Under the pieces are notes generated by a model. The model was given only the letters and a program-made list of their open reading frames with translations, ran no database searches and was not told the DNA's origin. This document shows, one piece after another, positions 196-51,764 of a stretch of DNA of 58,222 nucleotides; position 1 is the stretch's first letter, and each line of letters starts with the position of its first letter. The position numbers and the translations under genes were made by a program. The stretch is from a virus (Duplodnaviria > Caudoviricetes). The stretch is from IMG/VR virus record IMGVR_UViG_3300045978_000161, positions 1 through 58,222 of that record, one strand, 5' to 3'.

Positions 196-969
196 TCATT
201 TAATCCGGGCATTCAAGACAGCGACCCTCAGCCTCTCCCGGAAGCGATCGGGGAAAACGGCGCTGAAAGTCGACTGGGCCAGGGCCGCACCATCGAATCG
301 CTTCCGATATCGGGGTGCGTTGCGCACTACGATATAGACCATCCTGATGGCTGATCCGCTGCCGAAAGATGTGCGTTGAAAAATCGCCTTCGGTAGATGC
401 GAGCCGCGTGTACCGCCTTTCCCTCCGCCACCCATGAAATAAACACCGCGCTTCGATGCATCCTTCTTCCGTGACCGTCGGGCCCGACTCTCAGGAGTCG
501 ATCGGTTCAAAGGGTCACGTGAGGCCTGCAGATCCGACAGCAACGCATTCACGACACCACCAGGGACGTTGCCGAATGCATCCAGCGGAAAGCCCTTCGC
601 AGGGACCAGGAACTCATTGCCATCCAGAAGGCCCGCCCGGCGCAGGAGAAATTCGATGGGCTTCTCCTCTCGCGCGCCGGCGCGGGCCTGCGTCGCCAGG
701 TAGCGAGCCGGCGGCGTTCCGTCTCCTGCCTCGTCGCGCAGGAAAACCTCTGCGACCAGGTTGCTTTTGGTCGCCTTCTTGAACAGCACGGAATTCAGCG
801 TGAATGGCGTCGGCTGCTCGAACACCTGCGGGACCGCCTGCTTCCATGCGTCGCGCACCGCGAACATTGCATCGTTCAACGCCTGCATGGTCGCGAACGG
901 CAGCTGCGTCTCCTCCAGATCCGAAAACTTTCGGACCAGCGCGCTGTCGTCCCATTCGAGCTTCCACAT
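196..969 (-). CDS. Phage morphogenesis protein, putative lambda gpZ-like tail completion protein
   Basis: 257 aa, basic; QLPFATMQALN...PTPFTLNS pattern typical of genes next to cos in gpA-terminase phages; no gpZ equivalent in the neck gene block. Confidence 0.5.
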   Translation of the reverse strand: MWKLEWDDSALVRKFSDLEETQLPFATMQALNDAMFAVRDAWKQAVPQVFEQPTPFTLNSVLFKKATKSNLVAEVFLRDEAGDGTPPARYLATQARAGAREEKPIEFLLRRAGLLDGNEFLVPAKGFPLDAFGNVPGGVVNALLSDLQASRDPLNRSTPESRARRSRKKDASKRGVYFMGGGGKGGTRGSHLPKAIFQRTSFGSGSAIRMVYIVVRNAPRYRKRFDGAALAQSTFSAVFPDRFRERLRVAVLNARIK

Positions 970-2527: not shown

Positions 2528-3287
2528 TGTCGTTGTCTCCGGATGGTTTCAGGATGCCGCTGGTCATCAGCCGCAAGATCGAATCGCACATGAGACGCTC
2601 CGCCGCCTCGCTGATCGAGTTGCCGTAGAAGCCCGACGCGACGAGCAGCTCTAACTTCTCGCGCACCCGCGGCCCGGGCTTGAACATGACGCGCCCACTC
2701 CACCGATCGGCGAGCTGCTCGAAGCTCGTGACCGGCAGCCGATCGTCGATGATGCCGCGCGCTGCGAGCGGATCTGCGAGCACCGTGGTCTTGCCGACTG
2801 CGGCGTGCTTCTCGACGAGCACGTGCGGCTCTGCGGCCGGCGTCGGCGGCGCAGGTTTTGGCGCGGGCGCTGATTTGGCTTTCAGCGGCGGCAGCTTACG
2901 GCAGGCGGCGCAACGTGAAAAATTGCGCCCCGGTCCAGAGCGCAAGTAGTGAGATCGTGGGTGCTCCATTTGGCATCGCGAGCAGGCGACCATCGGTTCA
3001 GCGTGCTCGGTGCCGCCCACGGGTTTCGGCGGATCCTTCTGTCGGGGCGCCGGCGCGGGCGGTGCGGAGTCGCTCGTGCGCTTCGATTGTGCCGGCGGCG
3101 TGCCCGGCAGCGAATAGGTGTCTCCCTGGTCCATCACGATCTGCTTCGTGTGGACCAGGAGGCGCAGTGTCTCGCGGATCAGCGCGCTGTTCATGACGCC
3201 GGCGTTCTGAATGTCCTCGATCGAGCACCGGCCCTCGTTGGCCTTCAGCACGTCGATGATCTTGTTGCCGTGCGTCTGGTAGTTCAC
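2517..3287 (-). CDS. Putative DNA-binding regulator (wHTH-like N-terminus, CxxC-CxxC zinc finger, RHH-like C-terminus)
   Basis: GTG 3287 overlaps the VRR-NUC stop; CSRC...CAAC; Pro-rich linkers. Confidence 0.5.
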   Translation of the reverse strand: MNYQTHGNKIIDVLKANEGRCSIEDIQNAGVMNSALIRETLRLLVHTKQIVMDQGDTYSLPGTPPAQSKRTSDSAPPAPAPRQKDPPKPVGGTEHAEPMVACSRCQMEHPRSHYLRSGPGRNFSRCAACRKLPPLKAKSAPAPKPAPPTPAAEPHVLVEKHAAVGKTTVLADPLAARGIIDDRLPVTSFEQLADRWSGRVMFKPGPRVREKLELLVASGFYGNSISEAAERLMCDSILRLMTSGILKPSGDNDNER

Positions 3288-3814
3288 CGGATGCCGTCCT
3301 GCAGGTAGGTGTTGTCGCGGAAAGATCCGTCGGCGATCGCGCCGCTCATGTCCATGTACGCGCGCACGGCCTGGATCATTTCGAGCGCGCCCTTGCAGAT
3401 CTCCGCGTGATAGCCCCAACGTCGCAGGTCATCGCGCCACGTGGTCTGTTCCGCCTTCGGCGTCTCGCCTTCTCGCTTTGCTTCGAGATAAAGACCATGA
3501 AACCGACCGGAGGGAGTGTGGATCACGTAGTCGGGGAAGCCGGGCTTCATGCCGATCGACACCATGACCGCGGTCATCGCTCCCGCCTTGCCGCGCTCAT
3601 TCGGGATCTTCGCGAGCCGGCGGAAGATGGTCTCGCCCTGGAAGGTCACGAGCTGGGTCCACGCGATGAAGGTCCGACACTCGTCGGTCTCCAGCGGCGG
3701 TGCCGGATGCTGTGCCTTCCGCCGGCCCTGCTGCGTCGAGTGCGCAGCGTGCCGTTTCAACGGCGGGCGGTTGAGAGCGTCGAGATCTGCCTGGGTCATG
3801 CGCCGGCGTTTCAT
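3284..3814 (-). CDS. VRR-NUC domain nuclease (resolvase-like)
   Basis: IPNE...GMKPGFPD...GLYLEAK...EQ..W...L...GY motifs. Confidence 0.85.
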   Translation of the reverse strand: MKRRRMTQADLDALNRPPLKRHAAHSTQQGRRKAQHPAPPLETDECRTFIAWTQLVTFQGETIFRRLAKIPNERGKAGAMTAVMVSIGMKPGFPDYVIHTPSGRFHGLYLEAKREGETPKAEQTTWRDDLRRWGYHAEICKGALEMIQAVRAYMDMSGAIADGSFRDNTYLQDGIR

Positions 3815-3987
3815 CGCAGGTAGATGTACCCGATCGAGAAGCCGGCGAGCGCGACCAGGATGCAGTGGGCCACGAGCCCGGAGATCAGCCAGCGCATGTG
3901 GCCCTCGCGCAGCTGCATGAACGCGCCGATGGCCGCGGTCCCGTGGAACGCGATCACCAGGCCGAGCGTTATCTTGACGATGAGCAT
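3811..3987 (-). CDS. Small two-TM membrane protein
   Basis: 58 aa, GGGAGG SD before ATG 3987, two hydrophobic segments. Confidence 0.6.
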   Translation of the reverse strand: MLIVKITLGLVIAFHGTAAIGAFMQLREGHMRWLISGLVAHCILVALAGFSIGYIYLR

Positions 3988-4029
3988 GTTCGATCCTCCC
4001 CAGTTGGCCGGTGCATCCCCACAGCTCAT

Positions 4030-4380
4030 GCCCAGCTTTTCCACCTGATATCCACAGCCTCAAAAAGATTCGCGCGCGCGCGTCCGGATCCAGAGGTGCC
4101 AATCCGAAGTGCTACACGAGGCGTTCCAAATCCGCTGGGAGCTACCACTCCAGAGTGCAGATTTTCAGAGCGGAGGCGCACGGGTCCCTACCCACTCATG
4201 TGGCCGGACCTCGTGCGCCTGCCGGATCTGTTCAGACCCCCGTCGCATCAACGCAGCCGTCTCACCTGTTGCGGTGACGACTACCTGGTTCGCGGACAAC
4301 ACCGCGGGGCGCCGGGTCCAAGTACCCTCCGGCTCGCTTTCGCCCCAGGCCTGGCCCTCCCCGCCAGGCACTTCACTCCT
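4030..4380. other. Structured non-coding region; candidate replication origin and/or ncRNA
   Basis: No convincing ORF; stems at 4174-4220 and 4349-4369; two 1-mismatch DnaA-box-like 9-mers (4037-4045, 4048-4056); (CG)6 at 4071-4082. Confidence 0.4.
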
Positions 4381-4482
4381 AGCGAGATAAACGCTGCTGG
4401 CCGGACAGGGACCGACCGTGGTGACAGTTGGACCAGCAACGGCCGCGCGCGAACGCGCGGCGCAGGAAATATGCGGCCGGGC

Positions 4483-4911
4483 TCATGAGTTGAGCCCCTG
4501 GGCCTTCAATGTGGCAACGATATGCACGGACACCCGCCCTTCATGCGTGCGCTCGTGCATCACCAAGCCGTGCACCTCGTCGGGATGCTGCTCGAGCAGC
4601 TCCAGGACGACGCGCAGCTGCGCGAGCGCGCGGATCCGCATGTCGTCGCTGCGCGGCGCGCGCACGGTCATGTCGAAGCGTGGATCGGCCAGCGCGGCGA
4701 TCTGCGATGCCGTGACCAGCGGGTTCTCGATGAGTGGCTTCAGCAGCTCCGCGATCGCCGCGCTTGACCAGTGCACCGCGCTCACACCTTCGCAGGCGCG
4801 TATATCGACATCGAGCTGTCGCAGGGCGGTGCAGATGGCCTGCAGGCGGCCGAGAAGGGTGTCGGCCGCGGCCAATGCCACGGGCCCGTCTGCGGGCGTC
4901 TCAGGCGCCAT
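4483..4911 (-). CDS. Hypothetical protein with short TerS-like segment
   Basis: About 142 aa (start 4911 or 4920); DEVHGLVMHERT-HEG resembles TerS DLMHGLVVQVRTAHEG. Confidence 0.6.
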   Translation of the reverse strand: MAPETPADGPVALAAADTLLGRLQAICTALRQLDVDIRACEGVSAVHWSSAAIAELLKPLIENPLVTASQIAALADPRFDMTVRAPRSDDMRIRALAQLRVVLELLEQHPDEVHGLVMHERTHEGRVSVHIVATLKAQGLNS

Positions 4912-5137
4912 GCGGGGCATCCAGAGCGGGGACTTCGGTGGATCCACGTGGAACCAGGCGAAGGGCGTTGCGCGCACTGCGCGTCGCCGCCAGCTCCAGG
5001 GCCGACGGCGTGACGGGCGCACCGCACTGACAGCACTCCTCGCCCGGCTCGCCGATGGCCTGCTGATTCGGCGAGCAGCACCGGCAGTAATTGCCGGGCT
5101 GCTGGTAGGCGAGCGGTGGCGCGTCAACGTCCGCCAA
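4901..5137 (-). CDS. Small Cys-rich zinc-binding protein
   Basis: CRCC...CCQC; TTG start at 5137 inferred. Confidence 0.5.
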   Translation of the reverse strand: MADVDAPPLAYQQPGNYCRCCSPNQQAIGEPGEECCQCGAPVTPSALELAATRSARNALRLVPRGSTEVPALDAPHGA

Positions 5138-5363
5138 TGATCTTCTCCACGGTCGCGCGGTTGCGCTGCAGGACGTCCAGGATGGCGCGCGCCCCACTGC
5201 CCTCGATCGAGCCGTTGATCACGATGGTGATGGGCGCGGCCACGGGCGCGACCTTGGCGGGCAGCGCGGCCGCGGGGACTGAGAGCTCCGGCGCCGCGGC
5301 GCCGACGAGTGGCAGGGCCGCAGGTGCGGCGACGAGGCCACCGAGAAGCTGGCGACGGTTCAT
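5124..5363 (-). CDS. Twin-Arg leader peptide fused to a tape-measure C-terminus mimic
   Basis: MNRRQLL leader; last 24 aa are 11/24 identical, ungapped, to the last 24 aa of the tape measure. Confidence 0.8.
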   Translation of the reverse strand: MNRRQLLGGLVAAPAALPLVGAAAPELSVPAAALPAKVAPVAAPITIVINGSIEGSGARAILDVLQRNRATVEKIIGGR

Positions 5364-5584
5364 GCGTACACCTCGCGCGCGAGAAGTTCGTAGGGCATCT
5401 GCAGGCTTTCCGCGATCTGCCGAATCATCGTCGTGACGAATGCCGAGTAGGCTTCGGCGTTTTCGTAGGCGTCGAGATCGGCGAGCCGCTGGAGCAGCGC
5501 CGGCGAACCAGGCGAGGGCGCGAGCATCTGCGCCGGTGCGGTGGCGCCGGCGATCGCACCGAGGATCAGTTCGCGGCGGTTCAT
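5360..5584 (-). CDS. Twin-Arg leader peptide fused to a portal-segment mimic
   Basis: MNRRELI leader; YSAFVTTMIRQIAESLQMPYELL is 8/23 identical, ungapped, to portal YDPFFMAVCRQIGAALEIPLDEL. Confidence 0.75.
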   Translation of the reverse strand: MNRRELILGAIAGATAPAQMLAPSPGSPALLQRLADLDAYENAEAYSAFVTTMIRQIAESLQMPYELLAREVYA

Positions 5585-5811
5585 GGCAGTTCCACCGTCT
5601 GCGTGGCGCCCGGCACCACGGCGCCGAAGCCCAGGCGGCTGCAGCGGATGTTCTTGCCGGGGTTATCGAACATCGCCGCGTGCAACGTCACGCGATCGTT
5701 GGCCTCGTGTACCGCGAGCTGCTGGCCCTGCACCACCGTCATCGGTGCCTGCGCGAGCGCGATGTGGCGCGCGTCCAGGCCTGCGGCCGCGGCCTTCTCG
5801 TAACGATTCAT
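5581..5811 (-). CDS. Hypothetical protein
   Basis: 76 aa, ATGA-coupled at both ends. Confidence 0.65.
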   Translation of the reverse strand: MNRYEKAAAAGLDARHIALAQAPMTVVQGQQLAVHEANDRVTLHAAMFDNPGKNIRCSRLGFGAVVPGATQTVELP

Positions 5812-5981
5812 GCCACTGGCACCGGGGCCGCTGCCGAACGACCCCGGGCCTTGTCTGCAGACTTATGACTTCGGACATCCCGTGCTTGGCCGTCGGCCGG
5901 GATGTGAGCCTTGCGGCTCGACCTGATCAGCCGGTGCGCATGGCGGCACACCTGATACACGCTGCAGCGCCCGCGGATCAT
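5808..5981 (-). CDS. Possible small basic ORF overlapping structured RNA
   Basis: 57 aa, ATGA overlaps at both ends, atypical composition, three hairpins inside. Confidence 0.35.
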   Translation of the reverse strand: MIRGRCSVYQVCRHAHRLIRSSRKAHIPADGQARDVRSHKSADKARGRSAAAPVPVA

Positions 5982-6292
5982 TCGCGCCTTCCCGCGGGAA
6001 ACCCTTCTTGGGGCACGGCATCTGGCCCCTGTGCGCAAGGGTTAGATTCTTTCGCGGCGCGCTGCTTTGCGAGCGCCGCCTGTAGTTTGGGCCAATCGGC
6101 CTGGCGCACGTAGCAGATGCGTGCGGCGTGGTCGATCTCGAAGCGCTGCGCGCGAGGTTCGCGCGGATGGCCTGGCGCGACCGGGATCATGGTGAAGTCG
6201 GCGAGCGTCGGATCCGGTGCCTTGACCACCGCGGCGGGTTCCTCCGCGGGGACAATGCTCGCCGCGATCGCGGCCCGGATCAGGTGGTTCAC
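5978..6292 (-). CDS. Hypothetical protein with tail-tip-like motif
   Basis: 104 aa; KAPDPTLADFTMIPVAPGHP resembles tail-tip KPRSAALEDFDVPVAEEDRP. Confidence 0.7.
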   Translation of the reverse strand: MNHLIRAAIAASIVPAEEPAAVVKAPDPTLADFTMIPVAPGHPREPRAQRFEIDHAARICYVRQADWPKLQAALAKQRAAKESNPCAQGPDAVPQEGFPAGRRE

Positions 6293-6375
6293 TTCTTGGC
6301 CTTTGACGCGAGCAGAAGCGACACACCAAGCACCAGCAGGATGTAGGCGAGGTTGATCCAGCCGTCGCGTGTCAT
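6289..6375 (-). CDS. 28-aa hydrophobic peptide mimicking the tail-tip N-terminal helix
   Basis: MTRDGWINLAYILLVLGVSLLLASKAKK; start overlaps the cro stop, stop overlaps the next start; 9/21 identical, ungapped, to tail-tip residues 20-40. Confidence 0.7.
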   Translation of the reverse strand: MTRDGWINLAYILLVLGVSLLLASKAKK

Positions 6376-6677
6376 GGTGCGCCGAGTCCGTAGATGTCGG
6401 GCCGCAGATGCCGGCGCGTCACGGCCATGTCCGTGAGGATCTCGACGTGGCTCCAGTAGCGCTCGTCGATGAATTGGCCTTCGCTCACCCACCAGGCGAT
6501 CGCCTGCACGGTGACGGGTCGCTCGCCGGCGGACTCCATGCGCGTGCGCAGCCGGCGCGCGAATTCGGCCTGCGAGCCGCACGCCGTAAAGGCGCGGCGC
6601 AGGGCAATTCTTACCTGCTCCTGCGCCTGGTCGAGATTCACACCGGGGAAGATCTTCTGGTTTTCGGCCAGTGCCAT
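6372..6677 (-). CDS. Cro/YdaS-like HTH transcriptional regulator
   Basis: GSQAEFARRL...VTVQAIAWW...VTRRHLRPDIY; first gene at a divergent promoter region. Confidence 0.85.
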   Translation of the reverse strand: MALAENQKIFPGVNLDQAQEQVRIALRRAFTACGSQAEFARRLRTRMESAGERPVTVQAIAWWVSEGQFIDERYWSHVEILTDMAVTRRHLRPDIYGLGAP

Positions 6678-6679
6678 GT

Positions 6680-6850
6680 GCAGCTTTTACACCTGAGCCC
6701 GCAACAGACTCAAGGCGCACCTGTGAAATTCTTTCCGCGCCGCGTTGCAAGTAGGTATTGACAGGCCCCTCCGACAGCGAATCCCTGCCCCTATTTTCAA
6801 TTGTCAAGGCGCGTGGTAAATATCGGGCATGTTGCAGAGTGCGCACAGGT
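6680..6850. promoter_or_regulatory. Divergent promoter region
   Basis: AT-richer gap between divergent operons; TTGACA on + (6758-6763) and on - (6807-6802); TTGAGT-18-TAAAAG just before the cro ATG. Confidence 0.55.
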
Positions 6851-7026
6851 CGATGCTCCTGAAGCTCGCGCGGAATCACGCGATCGAGCTGCGCGGCCGT
6901 CTGTCAGTGGCGCGTCAAGTTCTCGGCCCGGCGCACCCCAAAGTCGGCGAGATCAAGAGCGAGCTGCTGCTCGCGGTCGATGCTGTGCGCACTCTGTACA
7001 CTGAACCCGAAAGGGTGGCCGCGTGA
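6829..7026 (+). CDS. Hypothetical protein
   Basis: Short ORF, first gene of the rightward operon; start uncertain. Confidence 0.45.
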   Translation: MLQSAHRSMLLKLARNHAIELRGRLSVARQVLGPAHPKVGEIKSELLLAVDAVRTLYTEPERVAA

Positions 7027-7053
7027 ACGATCCACGCCTCGCGGCTCGTTGAT

Positions 7054-7089
7054 GGCCCGCCGGCGGATCTGGGGATCTGTCGGCGGGCC
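7054..7089 (+). promoter_or_regulatory. 16-bp RNA hairpin in intergenic leader
   Basis: GGCCCGCCGGCGGATC-TGGG-GATCTGTCGGCGGGCC; two G-U pairs work only on the + strand; no U tract. Confidence 0.6.
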
Positions 7090-7112
7090 CCTGACGTAGA
7101 ACAACACGAAAC

Positions 7113-7122
7113 CCCAGGAGGG
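7113..7122 (+). repeat. Start-associated motif CCCAGGAGGG (first of 9 exact copies)
   Basis: Also at 15537, 19992, 21103, 21611, 23109, 23378, 51816 and 54188; each lies 3-7 nt before a start codon. Confidence 0.9.
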
Positions 7123-7125
7123 CAA

Positions 7126-7473
7126 ATGCCAGAGCCACGCCTTGAATGCCGCGACTGCGGTGAGTCGCTAGTAGTCTGCGATCGCTGCGTCGACGATGAT
7201 GATGTCGCCTCCTCCGCCTATCCACTCACGAGCGAAGCGCGGCGCGTTTTCCACATCGGGATATGCCCCTATCATGGTGCGCTCGCCAGGCGGTGCCCGA
7301 GGTGCGTACCGACGCATCTGATCGAGCCGGTCGACAACGGCCGCGTTGGTCCATCTCCGGAAATTCCCGATCGAATTATTCGCGCAGGTATGGTGTGCCT
7401 GCTCGTCGGCTTCGTCGCCGGCGTGCTGCTCACGCTGCTCTTGCTGCCGCAGATCGCGGCGAGGATGCACTGA
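7126..7473 (+). CDS. Cys-rich protein with C-terminal TM helix
   Basis: Multiple CxxC motifs; hydrophobic tail; strong SD. Confidence 0.7.
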   Translation: MPEPRLECRDCGESLVVCDRCVDDDDVASSAYPLTSEARRVFHIGICPYHGALARRCPRCVPTHLIEPVDNGRVGPSPEIPDRIIRAGMVCLLVGFVAGVLLTLLLLPQIAARMH

Positions 7474-10191: not shown

Positions 10192-10391
10192 AGATTGAGA
10201 GCGAGTTCCGGATCCTGGAGATCGGCCGCGCGCCGGCGGGCGAGGGACGCACGTCCGAGGTGGTGCTGGAGTCGATCGACGGCCAGCGCTTGAAGGTGAT
10301 CGGTCTCGACGACGACCAGGCGCGCGAGTTGGGCGCGCTGTTCAGCGAGCCCGTCAAGGTGTCGCTGGAGATCCGCAAGAGGAATGTCTGA
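10188..10391 (+). CDS. Hypothetical protein
   Basis: 67 aa, GGAGG SD. Confidence 0.7.
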   Translation: MKIESEFRILEIGRAPAGEGRTSEVVLESIDGQRLKVIGLDDDQARELGALFSEPVKVSLEIRKRNV

Positions 10392-11248
10392 TGGAGAACA
10401 CGAAGATCGAGTGGGCCACGCACACCCTGAACTGGTGGACCGGCTGCGAGCATGTCTCGCCGGCGTGCGATGGGTGCTACGCGGAGGCCTGGGCGAAGCG
10501 CGCGGGCCGTAACTTCGCGGAGCGCCGGCAGACGAGTGGCACCATTCACAAACTACCTTTCAAGTGGGAGCGCGAGGCGATCGCGACTGGAGACCGGCCC
10601 TATGTGTTCGTCAATTCGCTATCGGACTTCTTCGACAACAAGGTGCCTGACGAGTGGCGAGAGTCTTTTTTCTCGACTGCGCGGCAAACTCCCCACGTCA
10701 CCTATCTGCTGCTTACCAAGCGGATCGGCAATGCCGCGCGGATGCTTCCGCCAGGCGGTCCTGCCGAATGGCCGAACCTGTGGCTCGGATCCACGGTGGT
10801 CACTCCGGAGGAGGCAGCCCGCGATATCCCGAAGCTGCTGCGAACGCCGGCCGCGATTCATTTCCTGTCGATCGAGCCGATGCTGGCCGCGATGAATATC
10901 GACCGCTGGCTCTGGGACGATGACCAGCGCGAGGGCCACGTCACCGGGCTCGATTGGGTGATCGCCGGCGGCGAGTCCGGAGGTCACGCCAGGCCGCTGA
11001 ACCCCGACTGGATCCGCGGATTGCGCGACCAGTGCAGCGAGGCCGGCGTCGACTTCTTTTTCAAGCAGTGGGGCGAGTGGGCGCCGCCGGATGCGGTGCC
11101 GCCGGAGAAGTGGCACGACCGGCACACCTACGACAGCGGCGCGTACATGATGCGCGTCGGGAAGGATGTCGCCGGCGCGAAGCTCGATGGGTGTCTGCTC
11201 CGTGCGCGGCCGCCGCACCAAACTCCTTCGATCAGGCTTGCTCACTAA
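10391..11248 (+). CDS. DUF5131 / phage Gp37-Gp68 family protein (radical-SAM-like)
   Basis: TKIEW...GCEHVSPACDGCYA...FVNSLSDFF...LLLTKR...GGESG...FFKQWG. Confidence 0.92.
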   Translation: MENTKIEWATHTLNWWTGCEHVSPACDGCYAEAWAKRAGRNFAERRQTSGTIHKLPFKWEREAIATGDRPYVFVNSLSDFFDNKVPDEWRESFFSTARQTPHVTYLLLTKRIGNAARMLPPGGPAEWPNLWLGSTVVTPEEAARDIPKLLRTPAAIHFLSIEPMLAAMNIDRWLWDDDQREGHVTGLDWVIAGGESGGHARPLNPDWIRGLRDQCSEAGVDFFFKQWGEWAPPDAVPPEKWHDRHTYDSGAYMMRVGKDVAGAKLDGCLLRARPPHQTPSIRLAH

Positions 11249-12016: not shown

Positions 12017-12291
12017 TGCTGACGATCAAACGCAAGGTGGGCCAGGGGATCCGCGTCGGCAAGACGGTGCAGATCTCCGTGCACCAGCTCAGTAACCGCG
12101 GCGCGCATCTGGTGATCAAGGCGACGGGTCTCGAATTCGAGGAGGTGCTGTTCCAGTCGCACACCTGGTCGGCGGTGATCGACGGCCATCTGCTGTCGAT
12201 CACGCTGAACGACATCGTGCGCGGCGAGGCGGTGCTGGCGTGTGAAGCGAACCGCGAGCTGCGGATCGACCGGGAGGAGGTTGCATCGTGA
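12016..12291 (+). CDS. Divergent CsrA-like protein with internal duplication
   Basis: N-terminal MLTIKRKVGQGIRVG..VQISV and C-terminal GEAVLACEANRELRIDREEV match the two ends of CsrA, with about 40 extra aa between. Confidence 0.7.
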   Translation: MLTIKRKVGQGIRVGKTVQISVHQLSNRGAHLVIKATGLEFEEVLFQSHTWSAVIDGHLLSITLNDIVRGEAVLACEANRELRIDREEVAS

Positions 12292-12551
12292 GAAAGATCA
12301 TTCGCGTGGATCTCGACGTCGGCATGAATGTGCCGATCAGCGTGGCGAAGGGCGCGGTGCTGCTGCACGTCGGGTGGCGGAACGGGCCGGCGATGTACTT
12401 CCAGGTCGACACCGAGAAGGAGGTCGTGCAGCGCCAGGTCAACTGGTATCGCAACGAGGATCCACTGCCGGCGAAGGTCGGCAACTATCTCGGCACGGTG
12501 ACGGCGCCGGAAACGCTGATCACGTATCACGCATTCGAGGTGCGGCCATGA
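12288..12551 (+). CDS. Conserved phage hypothetical protein
   Basis: 87 aa; GAVLLHVG...YLGTV...HAFE. Confidence 0.65.
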   Translation: MRKIIRVDLDVGMNVPISVAKGAVLLHVGWRNGPAMYFQVDTEKEVVQRQVNWYRNEDPLPAKVGNYLGTVTAPETLITYHAFEVRP

Positions 12552-14302
12552 GCCGCACGGCCAATCTACCGATGCGCATGGACGCGCCGCCGGCGTATAC
12601 CGAACTTCCGCAGGACGTTCCGCAGGACGCGCGGCCGCACACCTTCGTGGTGGTGGGCAACACCGGATCCGGCAAGTCCAGCTCCGCCAGGTGGGGGATT
12701 GTGGAGCCGATCCTCCGCGCCCATCGGCGCGCGGCCATCATTGACCCGACGGGCGTGTGGTGGGGCTTGCGCTTCATGCGCGACGGATCGCCCGGCTTTC
12801 GCATTCCGATCCTGGGAGGCCTTTACGGCGATGCGCCGCTGCACGACTACGACGCGGCCGCGGTCGCGCGCTGGATCGGTGAGAACGATGTGCCGGTGAT
12901 CCTCGATCTCAGTGAAATGACGATCGGCGAGCGGCATGACTTCGGTGCTGACTTCTTCGCCGCGCTGTACCAGGCGAACCGGCGGCCGCTGCATCTGGTG
13001 ATCGACGAGGCCGACGAGTTCGCGCCGCAGAATCCGATGCCGGAGACGAAGCGACTGCTGCATCACGTCGATCGCATCGTGCGCCGCGGCCGCGTGCGAG
13101 GCTTCCGCCCGGTGATGATCACGCAGCGGCCGTCCGTGCTTCACAAGAATGTGATGTCGCAGGCGTCGGCGCTGGTGGCGATGCGACTCCTCGGCTCCCA
13201 GGACCGCGCCGCGGTGGAGCTGTGGATCAAGGGCCAGGGAGATCTCGCGGCCGGCAAGGAGGTGCTGAACACGCTGGCGCGGCTCCAGGTCGGCGAAGGG
13301 TGGCTGTGGGTGCCCGGGCTCAACATCCTCAACCGCGGCCGCTTCCAGTTGTTCGAGACCTACGACAGTTCGCGCACGCCGAAGGATGACGAGCCGCCTG
13401 TCGAGCCGCCTGGTCCGTTCCCATGGGCCGACGAGTTCCGCGAGCTGCTCGAGCACGTGGTCGCCGCGGATCCGCCGGCGGATCCGGATGCGCCGCCGGC
13501 GACGGCTGATGAGCTCGCGGCTGCTGAGAAACGCGGCCGCGATGCTGGCCGGCTCCTGGGATTCGACCAGGGCTTCCATGCTGCGACGGCCGCGCTGCAG
13601 GGCCGCGTGACCGGGGTGCTCAAGTCCGCGGAGGAGTTCATGGCCGGCTTGCGTGAGACCGCGGCATCCCTCGCGAATGGCGGTGCAAATCCGCCGGCGC
13701 CGCCGGCCACGCTGGTTGTGCACCCGACCAGGCAGGCCGCTGAGGAGTGGGCGAAGAAAAACGCCATCGTCCCCAAGCCTGCTGCGCCGGCGCCGAAGCC
13801 CGCGCCGCCGGTCGCGCGTGCGCAGCTCGTGACCGCGAGCAACTCCGGCGGCGAGAAGATGCTGAAGGCGCTCGCGATGCTGCAGGAGCAGCGCCCCTGG
13901 GAAGATGTGTGCGTGCTCGCCGGGATCCTGCACGCCAACGGCAACTTCTGGGTTGGCCGCAAATATCTGCTCGGCCAGGGATACGCGACCGAAGGTGCTG
14001 GCCAGGTGCTCGCGACGCCGGCGGGAATCAAGATCGCCGGCGGCCGGCAGCCGGCGCTGTCGCGCGCGGAGATCATCCAGCTGTGGCAACACAAGCTGCG
14101 CAGCCCTGGCGGTCTCATGCTCCAGGCGATCGCCGGCGCCCGCGGCTGTCAGATGTCGAAGCAGCAGCTCGTCGCCGCGCTTGGGATCAAGCCGGACAAC
14201 GGCAATTGGTGGGGCGGGTTGAAGGCCTTGCGCAAGGCGAACCTGATGGAGCAGGAGGGCGACACCTACCGGCTCACCAGCATTGTTAGAGAAGCTCGCT
14301 GA
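12548..14302 (+). CDS. HerA/DUF87-like P-loop ATPase with C-terminal wHTH-like repeats
   Basis: Walker A GNTGSGKS; IIDPTGVWWGL; Walker B LVIDEAD; RRGRVRG; ITQRP. Confidence 0.85.
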   Translation: MSRTANLPMRMDAPPAYTELPQDVPQDARPHTFVVVGNTGSGKSSSARWGIVEPILRAHRRAAIIDPTGVWWGLRFMRDGSPGFRIPILGGLYGDAPLHDYDAAAVARWIGENDVPVILDLSEMTIGERHDFGADFFAALYQANRRPLHLVIDEADEFAPQNPMPETKRLLHHVDRIVRRGRVRGFRPVMITQRPSVLHKNVMSQASALVAMRLLGSQDRAAVELWIKGQGDLAAGKEVLNTLARLQVGEGWLWVPGLNILNRGRFQLFETYDSSRTPKDDEPPVEPPGPFPWADEFRELLEHVVAADPPADPDAPPATADELAAAEKRGRDAGRLLGFDQGFHAATAALQGRVTGVLKSAEEFMAGLRETAASLANGGANPPAPPATLVVHPTRQAAEEWAKKNAIVPKPAAPAPKPAPPVARAQLVTASNSGGEKMLKALAMLQEQRPWEDVCVLAGILHANGNFWVGRKYLLGQGYATEGAGQVLATPAGIKIAGGRQPALSRAEIIQLWQHKLRSPGGLMLQAIAGARGCQMSKQQLVAALGIKPDNGNWWGGLKALRKANLMEQEGDTYRLTSIVREAR

Positions 14303-15553: not shown

Positions 15554-17617
15554 ATGCCTGTCAAGTTGAAGGCCGGTGTCGTGATAAAGATGCGGGTGTC
15601 CCGGATCGAACGCGATACCAAACAACCCCGCCAAACTTTCGACGAGGCTCCGCTGAAGGCGCTCGCCGACTCGATGAAGATCCGCCAGGAAGTACCGATC
15701 AAGGTCCGTGTCGAGGGCAAGCGGATCATCATTGTCGACGGTGAACGCCGCTGGCGAGCTGCCAAGATTGCCAAGCTGGAGTACATCGACGTGCTGGTCG
15801 ACGAGCGCAGTGACGCGCTCGATATCGCCGCGACGCAGCTCACCACCGCCGTGCAGCGCGAGCATCTGTCGCCGCTGGACATCGCGGAGTTCCTGGTCGA
15901 TCTGCAGAAGCGCGAGAAGGCAAACACCAACACGCTGCTGGCTGCGCTCGCGAAGCGCGGCATCACCGAGATCGGGCCGGCAAAGCTGGAGCGCGTCATG
16001 CGCCTTGTCGATCTGCCCGACTGGGGCAAGGAGTATGTGCGCAAGGGCGTGTTCGGCGAGAGCCACGGCGCCGCGGTGCTCCAGGTGGTTCGCTTCCCCG
16101 CGGTGCTGAAGCAGCTGCGCGGGCAGATTGCTAACGACATCAGCTGGAAGGGTGGCATCACGGTCAAGGAGCTGGTTAGCGAGGTGGAGCGCGCCGTGCG
16201 TGTCGCCGGCACCGACCTGAATCAGAAGTACGGCCAGGAGGAGGATCAGCGGCACTTCCCGATCGAGCAATGCTTGAAGTGCGAGTTCTACATCAAGATC
16301 GGCGGCGGGCAGTACTGTCAGAACCGCAAGCTGTTCGACAAGAAAAACCGCGAGGCGCTGCTGCTCAAGGCCGAGAAGGAAGCGAAGAAACAGGAGAAAG
16401 CGAAGGGCAACGGCCGCGAGCGCGAGGAGCCGGTGATCGAAACGGATCCGACGAAGGTGGAGCCGCGCAAGGTGAAGTTCGTCGACGCCAACGTGGTTTC
16501 CATGAAAGGTGTCCACTACGATCGCGCGCGGCCGCTGGACGATGCCGGCTTCGACAAGACGCAGTGCAATGGATGTCCGCACCGGCACCTGGCGAGCGCG
16601 AACGGCAAAGCCGATCACGAGGATGGTGTCGAGGATCACTGCTTCTATCCACCGTGCTTCGAGCACAAGAGCGCGAGCGATTCGCGCGTGCAGGGCCGGC
16701 GACAGAAGATGCGCGAGTACCTGGAGGCCTGGCTGCGGCCCGTCGTGGTGCGCGAGGCGCCGGCACGGCTCAACGCGAAGCAGCGCGCCGGCGTCCTGCT
16801 GTGGCTCGCGACCGGCGCCGTCGACCGTGGATCCGCATTCTACGGCGGGCAGATGCATGAGCACGCGGCACGCGCGACGGTGGCATTCCTGCAGAAGCAC
16901 CAGCTCAAGAGCTTCCCGCTGCTGATGGAGTTCGCCACTGCGAAGCTCGCGGAGGATCACGAGCGCCACCTGGTCGCGCTCGCGGTGCAGGTGATGACGC
17001 GCGAGCAGCTGCGCTGGTTCGCGCGCTACATCGCGATCGACCTGAATGATCCGGCGTTCGCGTATCGGATCGACGAGGGTTATCTGCGGCTCAAGCGCAA
17101 GGCGGAGATCATCGAACTCTGGAACACCTCAGCGATGTCATCGAAGCTGGAGCCGAACCTGTCTACGTCGCAGCTGCGCGACTGGTGTCTCGAGGTGAAT
17201 GCCCGCCAGAAGATCGGCGTGCCGGCCGACATCCAGGCGCTGTACGACGAGACCGAGGAGACGCGCGTCGACGAGGATGAGGACGATCTGCTCGATGAGG
17301 ACGATCAAACCGTCTGCATCGGCTGTGGCTGCTCCGACTTCGATGCCTGTCCGGACGGGTGCTCATGGGTCGTCCAAGGCGATCGCCGCGGCTACATGCC
17401 GGGCGGCAATGTCGGCGTCTGCAGCAACCCGGCGTGCGCACCTCATATGGAGCGGTTCCGCCGGCGGGACTTCACGCTGTCGGAGGTGGCCGAGAAACGG
17501 GTGGCGGAGCGCGACAAGCGCCGCAAGCAAGACGATGAGCAGCTCGCCGAAGCCGGCGGCGAGTTGGGCGAGATCCTCGCTGCCGGTAAAAAGCGGCGAA
17601 TGCCGCGGGAGGTGTGA
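15554..17617 (+). CDS. Large ParB/RepB/Spo0J family protein
   Basis: QPRQTFD..LKALADS; IVDGERRWRAA; QREHLSPLD; Cys clusters. Confidence 0.9.
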   Translation: MPVKLKAGVVIKMRVSRIERDTKQPRQTFDEAPLKALADSMKIRQEVPIKVRVEGKRIIIVDGERRWRAAKIAKLEYIDVLVDERSDALDIAATQLTTAVQREHLSPLDIAEFLVDLQKREKANTNTLLAALAKRGITEIGPAKLERVMRLVDLPDWGKEYVRKGVFGESHGAAVLQVVRFPAVLKQLRGQIANDISWKGGITVKELVSEVERAVRVAGTDLNQKYGQEEDQRHFPIEQCLKCEFYIKIGGGQYCQNRKLFDKKNREALLLKAEKEAKKQEKAKGNGREREEPVIETDPTKVEPRKVKFVDANVVSMKGVHYDRARPLDDAGFDKTQCNGCPHRHLASANGKADHEDGVEDHCFYPPCFEHKSASDSRVQGRRQKMREYLEAWLRPVVVREAPARLNAKQRAGVLLWLATGAVDRGSAFYGGQMHEHAARATVAFLQKHQLKSFPLLMEFATAKLAEDHERHLVALAVQVMTREQLRWFARYIAIDLNDPAFAYRIDEGYLRLKRKAEIIELWNTSAMSSKLEPNLSTSQLRDWCLEVNARQKIGVPADIQALYDETEETRVDEDEDDLLDEDDQTVCIGCGCSDFDACPDGCSWVVQGDRRGYMPGGNVGVCSNPACAPHMERFRRRDFTLSEVAEKRVAERDKRRKQDDEQLAEAGGELGEILAAGKKRRMPREV

Positions 17618-28418: not shown

Positions 28419-28618
28419 CAGACTGCTCCCAGGCTTTCCCAGTCGGTGTTGCCAGTGTTGCGGATCTGCAGGATCAGCAAGCTCGGAATGAACCAGAGCT
28501 TGCCGGCAGTGATCGCGTTCGCGGCATCGAGCGCCGGATCCGTCTCGCTGTGGATTGCGATCGGGTGTATCGCTGATGGCCCGGTCTCACGCATGTGCGC
28601 TGTATAGGTAACGGGCAT
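28418..28618 (-). CDS. Small tail-fibre adaptor-like protein
   Basis: TDPALDAAN...GKLWF...LQIRNTGNTDW. Confidence 0.65.
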   Translation of the reverse strand: MPVTYTAHMRETGPSAIHPIAIHSETDPALDAANAITAGKLWFIPSLLILQIRNTGNTDWESLGAV

Positions 28619-30807: not shown

Positions 30808-31625
30808 CAGAACACCGAAGTCTGTCCCATGGGGTTCTGCCGCGGCACGTAGTCGAACCCGCCGTAGTTGAGGATGTTGTCGAAAAAGTCGTTGCAGTCC
30901 GGCCGATCGTGCTTGCAGCCAGGCGAGACGATGATGCTGTCGAGCGCCGCGAGCCCGGCGAACGGGTGCGTCAGCACGATGGTGTCACCGGAGTGCGAGG
31001 CAATGCCGCGCTTCTCGATGCGGCCCGGGGTCGGCTCGAACTTGACGACGCCGCCGGCGAATCGCCCATCGTCGAAGGTGTCGAAGATTGCCGCGGAGAT
31101 CTCGGTGCCGCTCACGCCGTCGACGGTGGTGGTGATCTGGAAGTCCGCCTCGACCGCCTTGCACGCCGGCCCGTACAGCACGTGCGGGCAGCCGGCGCCG
31201 TAGGTGCGACGCAAACCCATCTGCTTGATCGAGGTGAACTTGTTCTCGCAGTAGAGCTTGCCCATGTTGGCGATGCGCTTGCCGTTCAGGACGCGGCCGC
31301 GCCAGATGACGCGCAGCTCCTGATCGGGATCGTTGCGATGGAACCGCGAGATCGTGAGCGTGATCACATCCGACGGTGGCGCACCTTCGTAGAAGTCCAG
31401 CACCGGGAAATCGAGTGGGCAGTCGATGTCGATCGAGTTCTTGGGCAGCTCGTCGGTCGACTCGAATGGCCCGTGATTCAGCGCATACGGCAGATAGAGC
31501 AGGCTCGCGACGGTCTGCTGCGTGCCCGCGGAGGTGTAGCGGAAGTTGGTGCCGTAGACCCGGAAGGTGTACAGCTCCACCGGCGACGCCAGCTCAACGC
31601 TCTGTTCGTACTGGTCATAGCTCAT
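30807..31625 (-). CDS. Phage BR0599-family baseplate hub protein (Fe-S cysteines)
   Basis: PVELYTF; CPHVLYGPAC; PGCKH...C...FDNILNYGGF.YVP. Confidence 0.9.
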   Translation of the reverse strand: MSYDQYEQSVELASPVELYTFRVYGTNFRYTSAGTQQTVASLLYLPYALNHGPFESTDELPKNSIDIDCPLDFPVLDFYEGAPPSDVITLTISRFHRNDPDQELRVIWRGRVLNGKRIANMGKLYCENKFTSIKQMGLRRTYGAGCPHVLYGPACKAVEADFQITTTVDGVSGTEISAAIFDTFDDGRFAGGVVKFEPTPGRIEKRGIASHSGDTIVLTHPFAGLAALDSIIVSPGCKHDRPDCNDFFDNILNYGGFDYVPRQNPMGQTSVF

Positions 31626-33300: not shown

Positions 33301-34221
33301 TTACGGCCTCAGGTGCGCGTAGCCGTACAGCCCGCTCGAAAGGATGCCGGTGCCGGGCTGCGTCAGGTGCCGCTGGAACACGGGGAACACCTGCCACTGC
33401 TGACCGCCGTAGCTCACGATCTCGCCCGGATCGAAGTTGCGCATGGAGACGAAGCGCAGGTTCGGGATCCTGCCGACTGGCGACGCCAGGCCACTCGCGC
33501 GCGCGACGAAGTACTCGCACGGGAACAGCGCGGTGCGCAGGTTCCACGACTGATCTTGAGTCGGCCAGTAGCTTGCCCACAGCCCGTCGCCGCGGCCGCT
33601 GCCGAATGCCATGTCATCGTCCGACGCCAGGCTCGCCGGCTGCTTCATGATTGCCCAGTTGGGCGATGCCTTGCCGTCGTAGTCGACCCATAAGTGCCCC
33701 GTGAGCTTGGTCGAGTTGGTTGCATCGCAGATGTGCCGCACGCCACCATAGTCCGCGAAGGGGATCGAGAAGATTGCGCTGGCGTCGCCCTCGGTCGAGT
33801 CGCAATACACGCCACCATCGTAGGTGCCGGACGGCACCAGCTGTCCGATCGTCCAGTGCCGGAAGATGTTGGCGCTGATCTCGACCGAGACGTGCACGTA
33901 CTCGTATCCATCTTCGTCGCCGAGATAGAAGTGATACGCGGTGTACGGCCCGGCGCCGAGATCCAGGATGTCGGTGACGGTGGCCGCGCCAGGCTGCGCA
34001 TTCCAGGCCGCCGCGCCGCTGTAGCCGGTGCAGCCGCGGCGCTGCCACTGGGTCGTTGTCGCGTCGATGCCGGCGTAAATGATGCCGCTGCCGCCGTTGT
34101 GGATCACGGCATCGCCCGACGCCGGCGCGGAGCTTGTCCACCCGTTCGCGGTGATGAAGGTGATCAGCTTCGACAGCAGATCAGCGGGATCGGTGGCAAC
34201 ACCTGTCTCGTAAGTCACCAT
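33301..34221 (-). CDS. Virion structural protein
   Basis: YETGVATDPADLLSKL..F..ANGW; tail module position. Confidence 0.8.
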   Translation of the reverse strand: MVTYETGVATDPADLLSKLITFITANGWTSSAPASGDAVIHNGGSGIIYAGIDATTTQWQRRGCTGYSGAAAWNAQPGAATVTDILDLGAGPYTAYHFYLGDEDGYEYVHVSVEISANIFRHWTIGQLVPSGTYDGGVYCDSTEGDASAIFSIPFADYGGVRHICDATNSTKLTGHLWVDYDGKASPNWAIMKQPASLASDDDMAFGSGRGDGLWASYWPTQDQSWNLRTALFPCEYFVARASGLASPVGRIPNLRFVSMRNFDPGEIVSYGGQQWQVFPVFQRHLTQPGTGILSSGLYGYAHLRP

Positions 34222-51692: not shown

Positions 51693-51764
51693 GCCCGAAA
51701 CTCGCCTTTTTTATGGGACCGATCAGACACTTACAGGACGCGATGGTGATGGCTTCGCCATGTT

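Follow-up and report, generated by a model that had tools for sequence, protein, structure and literature searches.

Do the small genes that follow a regulator gene in a tailed-phage genome carry copies of that phage's own virion proteins, and if so, what could such copies be for? The question is raised by a viral contig of 58 kb and 65% GC, with a head of the lambda type and a siphovirus tail (IMG/VR record IMGVR_UViG_3300045978_000161; by the window we mean the whole stretch analysed, 58,222 nucleotides). A first-pass annotation had proposed that five coupled ORFs each carry a short segment of a late protein. [quoted passage not shown] In our opinion, with a probability of roughly 0.35, B, E and F would act as competitive or dominant-negative mimics of tail-tip plug and portal contacts, directed against related phages.

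The small-ORF chain

Downstream of a YdaS/Cro-like gene, about nine small ORFs on the minus strand form the array and are linked by ATGA or GTGA or by short overlaps. The ORFs, with the parent segments of three of them, are as follows.

A, 6372-6677, minus strand: 101-aa YdaS/Cro-type HTH regulator, leading the leftward operon
B, 6289-6375, minus strand: 28-aa hydrophobic peptide, a diverged copy of the tail-tip N-terminal helix
C, 5978-6292, minus strand: 104-aa ORF, GTGA overlap with B, late-protein matches not significant
C2, 5808-5981, minus strand: possible 57-aa basic ORF between C and D, ATGA overlap at either end
D, 5581-5811, minus strand: 76-aa ORF without self-match
E, 5360-5584, minus strand: 74-aa diverged copy of a portal segment
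F, 5124-5363, minus strand: 79-aa ORF, a diverged copy of the last ~70 aa of the TMP, terminal helix included
F2, 4901-5137, minus strand: probable 78-aa Cys-rich ORF between F and G, absent from the first-pass annotation
G, 4483-4911, minus strand: 142-aa ORF, no match to TerS or another late protein
Parent segment of B, 30679-30792, minus strand: tail-tip protein aa 6-43, with the hydrophobic helix at aa 20-43
Parent segment of E, 47899-47982, minus strand: portal aa 372-399 (hhalign)
Parent segment of F, 35145-35375, minus strand: TMP aa 814-890, the terminal helix being the last 33 aa

The ORFs and their translational coupling were described correctly before, with ATGA stop/start overlaps at A/B, D/E and E/F and GTGA at B/C, and the chain is now extended by C2 and F2, which fill its gaps. 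The GC3 frame plot tracks each ORF, and the frame of A is consistent with it. In D, E and F, GC3 is 0.81-0.88 and GC2 0.46-0.54 (for D, GC at codon positions 1/2/3 is 0.72/0.46/0.88). The frame signal of C fades past ~6080; C2 has a weak GC3 of only 0.71 and is not called as a gene in public sources. F2 has a TTG start 8-9 nt after GGAG and is the highest-GC3 frame over 4936-5145. SD-like motifs (GGTGGA and GAGGTG) lie ahead of E and F. Public gene calls exist for A, C, D, E, F and G in 8-12 contigs, B being below the gene-calling length there. A longer version of G, starting with TTG at 5127, was rejected since the frame plot gives it no support. A promoter and terminator scan of 3600-7300 found none on the operon strand inside the array. 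A VRR-NUC gene neighbours the array.

The leading gene had been labelled cro. A is indeed a YdaS/Cro-type HTH protein, scoring above the gathering cut-off of Pfam YdaS_toxin (34.5 bits against 30, E 1.8e-8) and matching the phrog_35 transcriptional repressor (E 3.6e-4). However, its reading direction is leftward, away from a divergent intergenic region, a position equivalent to that of cI in lambda, and whether A is a lysogenic repressor or a Cro is not settled.

Which of the self-matches are real

When 46 non-late ORFs of the window were compared with the late proteins, z rose above 4 for B and F alone, each at about 10. The set of 'late' targets also took in two wrong-frame ORFs rich in arginine (41587-42759 and 34228-35394) and a doubtful one (51072-51692); low-complexity matches of upstream extensions to these are noise and were disregarded. 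C had been taken for a copy of the next tail-tip motif, yet its z against late proteins is at most 0.2, and even against that segment alone p is ~0.5 (0.26 with soft gaps). G had been related, more weakly, to TerS, and falls to chance level, with z ~0 against every late protein; an Atlas neighbour search with G gave nothing above noise. D has z ~0 against late proteins and no family match in Pfam or PHROGs, and family searches with C2 and F2 were likewise without a match. Late-protein likeness is thus found in only 3 of the ~9 ORFs of the chain.

The case is clearest for F. Its last 33 residues align without gaps with the last 33 of the TMP, 13 of 33 being identical (score 75, reached by none of 5000 shuffles), and both proteins terminate in GGR-stop. 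The full gapped alignment scores 83, and a search of the own genome gives E 3.7e-5. Against an HMM built from 14 TMP C-termini F obtains 17.5 bits (E 3.7e-4), the maximum among 2000 shuffles being 7.3, and its residues 7-78 are collinear with this 14-member profile over 72 residues. As read from the alignment, the TMP helix has seven hydrophobic positions and F keeps a hydrophobic residue at every one of them, while several polar positions differ. F is closest to the TMP of its own genome, not to those of relatives. In an AF2 monomer model residues 1-54 are disordered and 55-76 form a helix at pLDDT ~80; a sequence search of the PDB returned only one match for F, a low-complexity NRPS.

In JBD30, T5 and 80alpha the TMP C-terminus is a trimeric coiled coil docked in the baseplate core. 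Of the own TMP, only aa 709-842 align with the JBD30 TMP, the terminal helix lying outside. In JBD30 the coiled coil comprises the 33 C-terminal residues of the TMP; its anchor, the baseplate core, is where tail assembly starts, and these C-terminal residues are the first to be released (PMC11445458).

For B the ungapped match to tail-tip aa 20-43 has 10 of 24 residues identical and a score of 58. None of 200 plain shuffles reached this score (maximum 40), nor did any of 5000 shuffles that preserve the flank/core/flank architecture (maximum 54), and other hydrophobic proteins in the window score 18-24. The helices of two relatives score 38 and 24 with the register unchanged, so B fits the helix of its own phage best. 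There was no direct match of B to phrog_1180 at E <=0.1, a search in which 28 aa carry little statistical power; the parent domain of the tail-tip protein does match phrog_1180 (E 4.5e-24). Tail-tip residues 23-91 match PDB 8vjh_U, 'Tail assembly protein 1' (TAP), a virion chain of phage Chi (E 6e-7). The TAP trimer plugs the tip lumen next to the TMP (PMC13455828).

The evidence for E is of another kind. E aa 45-68 against aa 373-395 of the own portal score 40, which alone gives p ~0.04. Evidence at the level of the family is stronger. E matches Pfam Phage_portal_2 (PF05136) with E 5.7e-5 and 22.9 bits, under the gathering cut-off of 32.9 and over profile positions 302-330 of 354 only; it matches the phrog_537 portal with E 1.8e-4 and, in hhalign, an alignment of seven portals with a probability of 92.6% (E 4.5e-7). 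When E was compared with phages by tblastn, 21 of the 27 matching records had the match under a portal-annotated feature, and the top matches span E aa 5-74. E is collinear with portals across ~70 residues with one in-frame insertion of 13 aa. The parent range in the own portal, itself a member of the lambda family (Pfam E 1.4e-87), is about aa 344-399, with a robust core of E aa 45-72 against portal aa 372-399. Judged by these matches, E is a fragment-sized relative of lambda-family portals, not a portal itself. Its AF2 monomer model has a helix at 43-61, a turn and a helix at 65-73, and Foldseek returned no PDB match to this model at E <=0.001. From general portal topology, we take E to correspond to the clip plus the stem, as a candidate assignment.

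Could chance likeness of short helical or hydrophobic segments account for every match? The segments are indeed only 23-33 aa long, C and G are at chance level, and the value of E against the own portal is marginal. But the shuffles that fail to reach B and F include those that keep the architecture of B, independent profiles back E and F, the register of B is conserved in the helices of relatives, and both ORFs that passed z > 4 out of the 46 sit in one chain of small ORFs. For B, E and F the chance reading was tested and is not supported; we regard it as very improbable.

Probable captured gene fragments, old rather than new

The substitutions had been described as mostly conservative, and the identities by codon position agree: at positions 1/2/3 they are 16/21/10 of 33 in F, 10/20/11 of 24 in B and 13/15/11 of 23 in E. 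Such a pattern alone can, by calculation, be reproduced by a neutrally drifting copy and a constrained parent. The mini-ORFs are 31-42% identical to their parents. Third codon positions are saturated, frames are collinear over at least 70 codons, and residues invariant in the parent families have been lost; hence these are old copies and, as had been supposed, not debris of a recent duplication. By these comparisons, three segments of virion proteins of this phage have free-standing paralogous copies in B, E and F that diverged long ago.

We depart from the earlier description where it speaks of epitopes. In E and F the collinearity with the parent covers almost the entire length, beyond the motif, and the likeness of B (RTRR) and F extends 5' of their start codons. 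This is what is expected of inserted gene pieces, and we infer that captured late-gene fragments are the origin of all three. The N-termini may be part of this inheritance. Those of E and F both read MNRR.L (z 3.7) and look like Tat signals; F obtains 14 bits against Pfam TAT_signal, where the cut-off is 22.7 (E 0.052), and NCBIfam Tat models gave no match for E or F at E <=1. Since the N-terminus of F aligns with the GG motif and linker of the TMP, and that of E with the strand region of the portal, the Tat look is possibly parental.

This origin raises an alternative that is nearly as likely as the mimicry that we favour, namely that the likeness reflects DNA origin only, and that the fragments are now relics, or small proteins without mimicry. 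Illegitimate recombination would have brought the 5' end of the tail-tip gene, an internal piece of the portal gene and the 3' end of the TMP gene into the leftward operon. Preservation of the parent stop position in F fits such a route, as do the collinearity and the 5' extensions. Open frames are not demanding either, since at 65% GC long ORFs arise easily and hence are cheap (the window holds 235 of at least 100 aa). On the other hand, the relics would have kept coding-type GC3/GC2 and 4-nt overlaps, and there is not a single frameshift over at least 70 codons despite saturated synonymous sites. Moreover, fragments of three late genes lie in one coupled chain of 1.3 kb in an order unlike that of the late operon, so several independent events would be needed, all of them retained. 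The loss from E and F of several residues that are invariant among true portals and TMPs is in accord with relics; it also indicates evolution under constraints unlike those of the parents.

A single phage lineage

The search for relatives bears on the same alternative. Homologues of A, C, D, E, F and G were found neither among 5.8 billion protein clusters nor in IMG/VR, JGI metagenomes or GenBank phages. The array was queried by blastn and tblastn in GenBank phages, A, E and G in IMG/VR, and the VRR-NUC neighbour as well as G in JGI metagenomes; word-index searches covered F among proteins of near length and E among longer ones. A phmmer search with F against 1.84 billion representatives returned F itself and two long low-complexity matches only. 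In the exact cluster look-up every ORF called there falls into a single-member cluster, except C (two members). A near-identical donor TMP or portal was not found in the libraries searched, and recent capture is thus unsupported.

The tail module itself does have relatives, one in an Endozoicomonas MAG at 34% identity, and the TMP alignment search yielded ten IMG/VR loci. Three related whole viral records, with TMPs 28-41% identical, were scanned with two pipelines for distant mini-copies of late proteins, and in none of the three was there a counterpart. As a positive control, F of the window was recovered by the first pipeline; neither of them picked up B, its frame being merged into a longer spurious ORF in the first, and composition-based statistics being switched on in the second. 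A search of five records with F and the TMP C-terminus gave no mini-copy either. The array is therefore known from one phage lineage, and this lack of conservation beyond its own lineage is again what relics would show.

What the mini-proteins may do

The mimicry that we prefer draws on what the copied segments are. These are the N-terminal hydrophobic helix of the tail-tip domain that resembles an assembly protein, a putative stem-type helix of the portal with the strand region that precedes it, and the C-terminal linker and terminal helix of the TMP. Each kept segment appears to correspond to an oligomer or docking contact in solved siphovirus structures: the trimeric coiled coil of the last 33 TMP residues, the TAP trimer plug, and the ring contacts and docking of the portal stem and clip. 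Since segments of this kind make such contacts, the mini-proteins would be competitive, dominant-negative mimics, which may co-assemble with the tape-measure, tip-plug and portal proteins of rivals or block their docking sites. The targets would be related phages, co-infecting or superinfecting, and the outcome would be either jammed assembly of tail tip and portal or a block of the first envelope-crossing step. Several points speak against this: the lack of homologues and of mini-copies in the related records, the ease with which frames stay open at 65% GC, the codon-position pattern that neutral drift could also give, and the absence of late-protein likeness from most of the chain. In addition, barring timing or divergence, the phage's own assembly should suffer too, and the portal piece E is inconsistent with a block at the level of the envelope. 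As to the wider proposal, that a self-derived, co-translated set of 'poison subunits' or decoys, expressed from the switch-proximal operon, jams competitors or blinds host sensors, we consider it possible, but doubtful.

Decoys for host sensors seem unlikely to us. Here a monomeric piece would bind a sensor of portal, TMP or tail without the clustering or oligomerisation that fires it. The array does sit in a regulator-adjacent operon, and such operons are a frequent site of accessory and counter-defence genes. For the hydrophobic helix of the tip plug, that is B, we know of no sensor. For the other parts sensors do exist. SpbK binds the clip domain of the portal, and its activation requires clustering on the dodecamer. 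A preprint assigns Avs11 to the portal, Avs18 to the TMP and Avs17 to the tail assembly chaperone (bioRxiv 10.64898/2026.01.04.697583), and SNIPE is described as TMP-associated at the inner membrane (PMC13190303). But Avs sensors, according to the same preprint, read extended fold surfaces by shape (bioRxiv 10.64898/2026.01.04.697583), and a single helix could hardly imitate these. Further, the clip-plus-stem candidate assignment of E reflects general portal topology, the array has no match to a PADLOC model and contains no known anti-defence family, and in the literature we found no phage-encoded decoy of this type.

A role in the phage's own morphogenesis is, in our opinion, quite improbable. 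The mini-proteins would restrain or chaperone subunits of the TMP, tip or portal as long as the ratios of late products are not yet right. That B and F are nearest to the tail-tip helix and TMP of their own phage, rather than to those of relatives, would be in line with this idea. However, the array is far from the late operon and apparently under a different promoter, related phages share the tail module yet do without the mini-ORFs, and the mini-ORFs share no more than 31-42% of their residues with the parents.

In the literature searched, no phage is described that encodes pieces of its TMP, portal or tip protein for use as mimics. If our preferred reading, competitive mimicry, is true, there would be a simple evolutionary route to anti-phage or anti-host weapons, in which the part of a virion protein that oligomerises or docks is copied and then expressed alone. 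Such pieces would be ready-made, sequence-addressable inhibitors of tape-measure, tail-tip and portal steps, and other genomes could be mined for them through self-similar mini-ORFs. Should B, E and F be no more than relics, or small genes of unrelated function, they would still illustrate clearly how fragments of late genes give rise to small genes, though with limited general interest.

Comparison with known systems

With the C-terminal domain of siphovirus TMPs F shares the GG motif, the Ala/Pro/Gly-rich linker and the terminal helix, the latter with the hydrophobic pattern and the end of the family. Unlike these proteins, F lacks the other ~810 residues and lies outside the tail operon, and the equivalents of the family-invariant S865 and E869 are lost.

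In its layout the array resembles lambda cI-rexA-rexB and early-operon morons, where small genes lie directly behind a switch-region regulator and are coupled to it. The Rex proteins are not known to be fragments of virion proteins, unlike B, E and F.

Superinfection-exclusion proteins halt the TMP-dependent step of DNA delivery. To our knowledge, HK97 gp15, TP-J34 Ltp and similar exclusion proteins are not copies of virion proteins. Those considered here (HK97 gp15, TP-J34 Ltp; P22 SieA) are small, phage-encoded, envelope-associated and accessory. The array is similar in that B has the character of a small membrane peptide and that F is a copy of the TMP region which is first to leave the tail. 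It differs in that the putative excluders would be paralogues of their own target.

Tab is a mobile-element-encoded blocker of phage tail assembly. Tai is likewise a tail-assembly block encoded by a mobile element, and shares with our proposal the idea of hitting the tails of competitors (PMC11364771). The difference is that Tai and Tab are defence proteins of hosts, prophages or PICIs, and are not known to be tail-protein fragments. With PADLOC the array shows no sequence relation to Tai or Tab.

PICIs and SaPIs carry diverged look-alikes of capsid, scaffold and small-terminase proteins, which redirect or poison the assembly of their helper. As in the array, a diverged copy of a virion or packaging protein is involved. 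Theirs are full-domain proteins, encoded in satellites and used against the helper, whereas those of the array are pieces of 28-79 aa in the genome of the phage itself.

The small-ORF operon and its genomic setting

The window (58,222 bases, 65% GC) is a single virus record in IMG/VR, estimated to be 81% complete. It carries its late genes on the minus strand, from 28.6 to 51.3 kb:

49316-51295, minus strand: gpA-type large terminase
47365-49095, minus strand: lambda-family portal (Pfam E 1.4e-87)
46010-47545, minus strand: S49 protease
44507-45535, minus strand: E-type major capsid protein
35142-37814, minus strand: tape-measure protein (TMP)
33301-34221, minus strand: structural protein
31615-33300, minus strand: tail assembly or distal-tail-type protein
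30807-31625, minus strand: BR0599-type hub
28618-30807, minus strand: tail-tip/host-specificity protein, 729 aa

The array operon runs leftward from a 150-bp divergent intergenic region (6678-6828). A, which may be either Cro or the lysogenic repressor, reads from there, where lambda has cI-rexAB:

6372-6677, minus strand: A, YdaS/Cro-type HTH protein (34.5 bits)
6289-6375, minus strand: B, 28 aa
5978-6292, minus strand: C
5808-5981, minus strand: C2, ATGA overlap with both C and D, GC3 only 0.71
5581-5811, minus strand: D
5360-5584, minus strand: E
5124-5363, minus strand: F
4901-5137, minus strand: F2, unannotated, between F and G; Cys-rich 78-aa product, TTG start behind GGAG, highest-GC3 frame
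4483-4911, minus strand: G

Stop and start codons overlap as ATGA at A/B, D/E and E/F and as GTGA at B/C, and the SD-like motifs GGTGGA and GAGGTG stand ahead of E and F. A sliding plot of GC by codon position tracks the frame of each ORF and reveals F2 and C2 as two further candidates. With these overlaps, and with F2 and C2 filling the gaps, about nine small ORFs form one uninterrupted coupled chain. The coupling described in the first-pass annotation, which placed the small ORFs downstream of cro, is confirmed, and the chain is longer than it supposed. Gene calls with the same ends exist for A, C, D, E, F and G on 8-12 public contigs, and every copy is identical; B, C2 and F2 have no such calls.

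The same plot speaks against a long form of G starting at TTG-5127, F2 being the best frame across 4936-5145. The Cys-rich stretch of F2 (C.CC ... CC.C) could bind metal, judging from its sequence; no family match was found for F2. Downstream lie a 77-aa membrane-type protein (3811-4044, minus strand) and a VRR-NUC nuclease-domain protein (3284-3823, minus strand; E 7.5e-4, below the Pfam cut-off), so that the array gives way to ordinary early or recombination-type genes.

The rightward operon contains a 686-aa P-loop NTPase (12242-14302, plus strand; its AAA/NACHT/DEAD matches are weak), a 687-aa protein with a ParB-type domain at its N-terminus (15554-17617, plus strand), a DUF5131 protein (10391-11248, plus strand; E 1.4e-76) and other genes. 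Together with a TET-associated glycosyltransferase domain (PF20691, E 9.6e-7) at 55232-56128 on the minus strand, the DUF5131 protein suggests that the phage modifies its own DNA bases. A 457-aa protein (51661-53034, plus strand), encoded opposite to the terminase region and immediately upstream of it, has the central domain of DNA polymerase III beta, the sliding clamp (E 8.2e-9). Far from the tail operon, the 257-aa product of 196-969 (minus strand) matches phrog_1924, 'minor tail protein' (E 1.3e-62); Pfam and PDB gave no match for it. Either the PHROG assignment is loose or the left arm holds a virion-type gene. No integrase was seen within the scanned parts of the window, so that the phage may be integrating, plasmid-like or lytic.

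Matches of the small ORFs to virion proteins

The first-pass annotation had assigned five of the small ORFs to parents among the late proteins: B and C to consecutive segments of the tail-tip protein, E to the portal, F to the TMP C-terminus and, more weakly, G to TerS. We aligned each small ORF with all late proteins by Smith-Waterman and took as the null the maximum over all targets for shuffled queries. Among 46 non-late ORFs compared with the late proteins, B and F alone exceed z 4, both reaching about 10; E is weak by this measure alone, and C, D and G score at the null mean. For G, z is about 0 against TerS or any late protein. With the segment after the tail-tip helix as its sole target, C reaches p of about 0.5 (0.26 when gaps are penalised softly). 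Hence B, E and F (3/5) keep their parents, and C and G are at chance level.

B scores 58 against the tail-tip protein (null 30 +/- 3, maximum 40 over 200 shuffles). Because hydrophobic helices readily match one another, we also shuffled B within flank, core and flank; 0/5000 such shuffles reach 58 (maximum 54), and shuffling the target instead has the same outcome. The alignment, to tail-tip aa 20-43, is ungapped with 10/24 residues identical. Against the homologous helix in two relatives B holds the same register, scoring 38 and 24, and against other hydrophobic proteins of the window it scores only 18-24. When late proteins were searched against the early region with tblastn, the match extended to tail-tip aa 6-43 against 6390-6292, with RTRR identical upstream of B's ATG.

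The tail-tip segment aa 23-91 has matches in PDB chain 8vjh_U (E 6e-7), named 'Tail assembly protein 1', and in phrog_1180. The entry 8VJH is described as the tip of phage Chi (PMC11945409), and its chain U is probably the equivalent of the tail assembly protein whose trimer is described as plugging the lumen of the tip next to the TMP (PMC13455828). In Chi this N-terminal module is a separate 76-aa protein and here it is joined, so it is both split and fused among phages. The longest ORF of the window's tail-tip gene (28618-30807, minus strand) has about 19 extra Arg-rich residues before the hydrophobic helix, at which the tail-tip proteins of two related loci (L012 and L014) start directly (M-x-W...); the true start may therefore lie further downstream.

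F scores 83 against TMP (null 42 +/- 5, maximum 68), and a genome-level search gives E 3.7e-5. Its last 33 residues align without gaps to the last 33 of TMP (13/33 identical, score 75, reached by 0/5000 shuffles), and both chains end GGR-stop. A profile HMM of the C-terminal 100 aa of 14 TMPs (13 from relatives, one from the phage itself) aligns F aa 7-78 to positions 33-100 at 17.5 bits, against a best of 7.3 among 2000 shuffles, over a span that comprises a GG motif, an Ala/Gly/Pro-rich linker and the terminal helix. By tblastn TMP aa 814-890 match 5381-5127, which extends the homology six codons upstream of F's ATG. In that HMM alignment 7/7 hydrophobic positions of the helix stay hydrophobic and several polar ones are changed. 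An AF2 monomer of F, made with no alignment and of modest confidence, has residues 1-54 disordered and a helix at 55-76 (pLDDT ~80).

E scores 44 against the portal, which is not significant, and its ungapped match (E aa 45-68, own portal aa 373-395, score 40) has p of about 0.04. The profile searches are what uphold its assignment: Pfam Phage_portal_2 (E 5.7e-5, profile positions 302-330 of 354), portal phrog_537 (E 1.8e-4) and hhalign against an alignment of seven lambda-family portals, which places E aa 45-72 on own portal aa 372-399 with 92.6% probability (E 4.5e-7). When E was searched with tblastn against 50,697 phage records, 21 of the 27 matching records placed the match under portal-annotated features; the best matches (E 2e-3) span E aa 5-74. 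This family-level evidence is consistent with E being a portal piece. Of the ten portal columns that are invariant in the matched stretch, E has lost several. The portal stem is described as two long helices linked by the clip, a docking station for terminase and tail. An AF2 monomer of E (no alignment, modest confidence) has helices at 28-39, 43-61 and 65-73, and from portal topology and the predicted helix E would correspond to the clip strands plus the second stem helix.

E and F begin alike with MNRR.L (z 3.7), which has the look of a twin-arginine signal. The curated signal models do not bear this out: F reaches 14 bits against Pfam TAT_signal (cut-off 22.7), and neither E nor F matches an NCBIfam Tat model. 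The N-termini of both also align to parent sequence.

The three matches that hold are clustered well beyond chance, and we consider it highly improbable that all three are accidental. B resembles the 5' end of a tail-tip gene, E an internal portal piece and F the 3' end of a TMP gene, so far as sequence can tell. The idea of short epitopes does not fit the spans of E and F, and the matches are homologies over whole fragments.

Age, constraint and relatives

In the three matched segments together, identity at codon positions 1, 2 and 3 is 39, 56 and 32 of 80; synonymous sites are saturated and second positions kept. The segments had been read as conservatively diverged under protein-level selection, and not as recent debris. 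Their age is borne out by the saturated third positions; the codon-position pattern by itself is no proof of selection on the mini-ORFs, since by a rough calculation a neutrally drifting copy and a constrained parent could produce it.

In the main rival explanation the likeness records origin only, and the ORFs are captured fragments that are now either relics or genes with an unrelated role. Against neutral decay, the frame is unbroken over at least 70 codons in both E and F, and such indels as occur (13 aa in E, 4-8 aa in F) keep the frame. Recent capture from another phage is argued against by four observations: no TMP or portal close to F or E was found in the searched libraries; F scores 75 with the TMP of its own genome and 27-64 with those of 14 relatives; invariant residues are lost in both E and F, F being without equivalents of S865 and E869, which are invariant in the real TMP family; and the helix of F keeps its hydrophobic positions. 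In our opinion the origin-only explanation is nearly as probable as competitive mimicry (see below), both being less likely than not.

No homologues of A, C, D, E, F or G were found among 5.8 billion protein clusters, IMG/VR, JGI metagenomes and GenBank phages, nor for F among 1.84 billion representatives. The tail module does have relatives, with 15 TMPs 50-99% identical in the C-terminal region and ten IMG/VR loci. The related records searched gave no sign of such an array: no distant mini-copy of a late protein appeared in three whole related records (0/3) in two self-similarity scans, the first of which recovers F in the window and both of which miss B, and no match to F in five related records (0/5). 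The TMP C-terminus as query found only the TMP gene itself, in 2/5 related records. The case thus rests on a single phage lineage. In one relative (G001:C1:19238-19474, locus L012) the TMP frame has one in-frame TAG inside an 883-aa open frame, and a sequencing error, a split of the gene or read-through of the stop codon may explain it.

Possible function

Three old paralogous virion-protein fragments persist as coupled small ORFs, and from sequence a mimic interpretation of the array is plausible. Since each kept piece appears to be an oligomerisation or docking element, competitive mimicry of virion contacts by B, E and F would be the most economical function; we give it a probability of roughly 35%. 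Related phages would be the likely targets, as the fragments share no more than 31-42% identity with the proteins of their own phage. B and F are copies of what may be the pair of components that occupy the tail-tip lumen and go into the envelope ahead of the rest. They could assemble together with TMP and tip-plug proteins, incoming or nascent, or take the places where these dock. E might cap portal contacts or a portal-binding partner.

For F a precedent comes from phage JBD30, where the 33 C-terminal TMP residues are described as a coiled coil held in the baseplate core via upper baseplate protein contacts, tail assembly as beginning from the TMP C-terminus/baseplate complex, the C-terminal domain as first released at infection, and the fold as shared with T5 and 80alpha (PMC11445458). 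The own TMP aligns with that of JBD30 only at aa 709-842, so that equivalence of the terminal helices rests on position and not on alignment.

The same fragments might instead be decoys for host sensors of portal or TMP. Such sensors are on record, but Avs-type sensors are described as reading extended surfaces, and we hold decoys to be unlikely. Regulation of the phage's own assembly seems less likely again, the low identity pointing to related phages.

Comparison with known systems

The closest functional analogues of the array include exclusion proteins, tail-assembly interference systems and satellite proteins. HK97 gp15 and TP-J34 Ltp bring about exclusion at the step of TMP-dependent DNA entry, and P22 SieA is described as another such exclusion protein; Tab is a tail-assembly interference system, and satellites encode homologues of helper-phage structural proteins. 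Tai is likewise described as interfering with tail assembly (PMC11364771). In contrast to the array, none of these is described as a cut-out set of fragments of the phage's own virion proteins, and full-text searches of the main articles gave no description of such a set. Small accessory genes close to the switch are already known in kind, as is interference through mimicry; that the array is a new strategy is a real but unproven chance.
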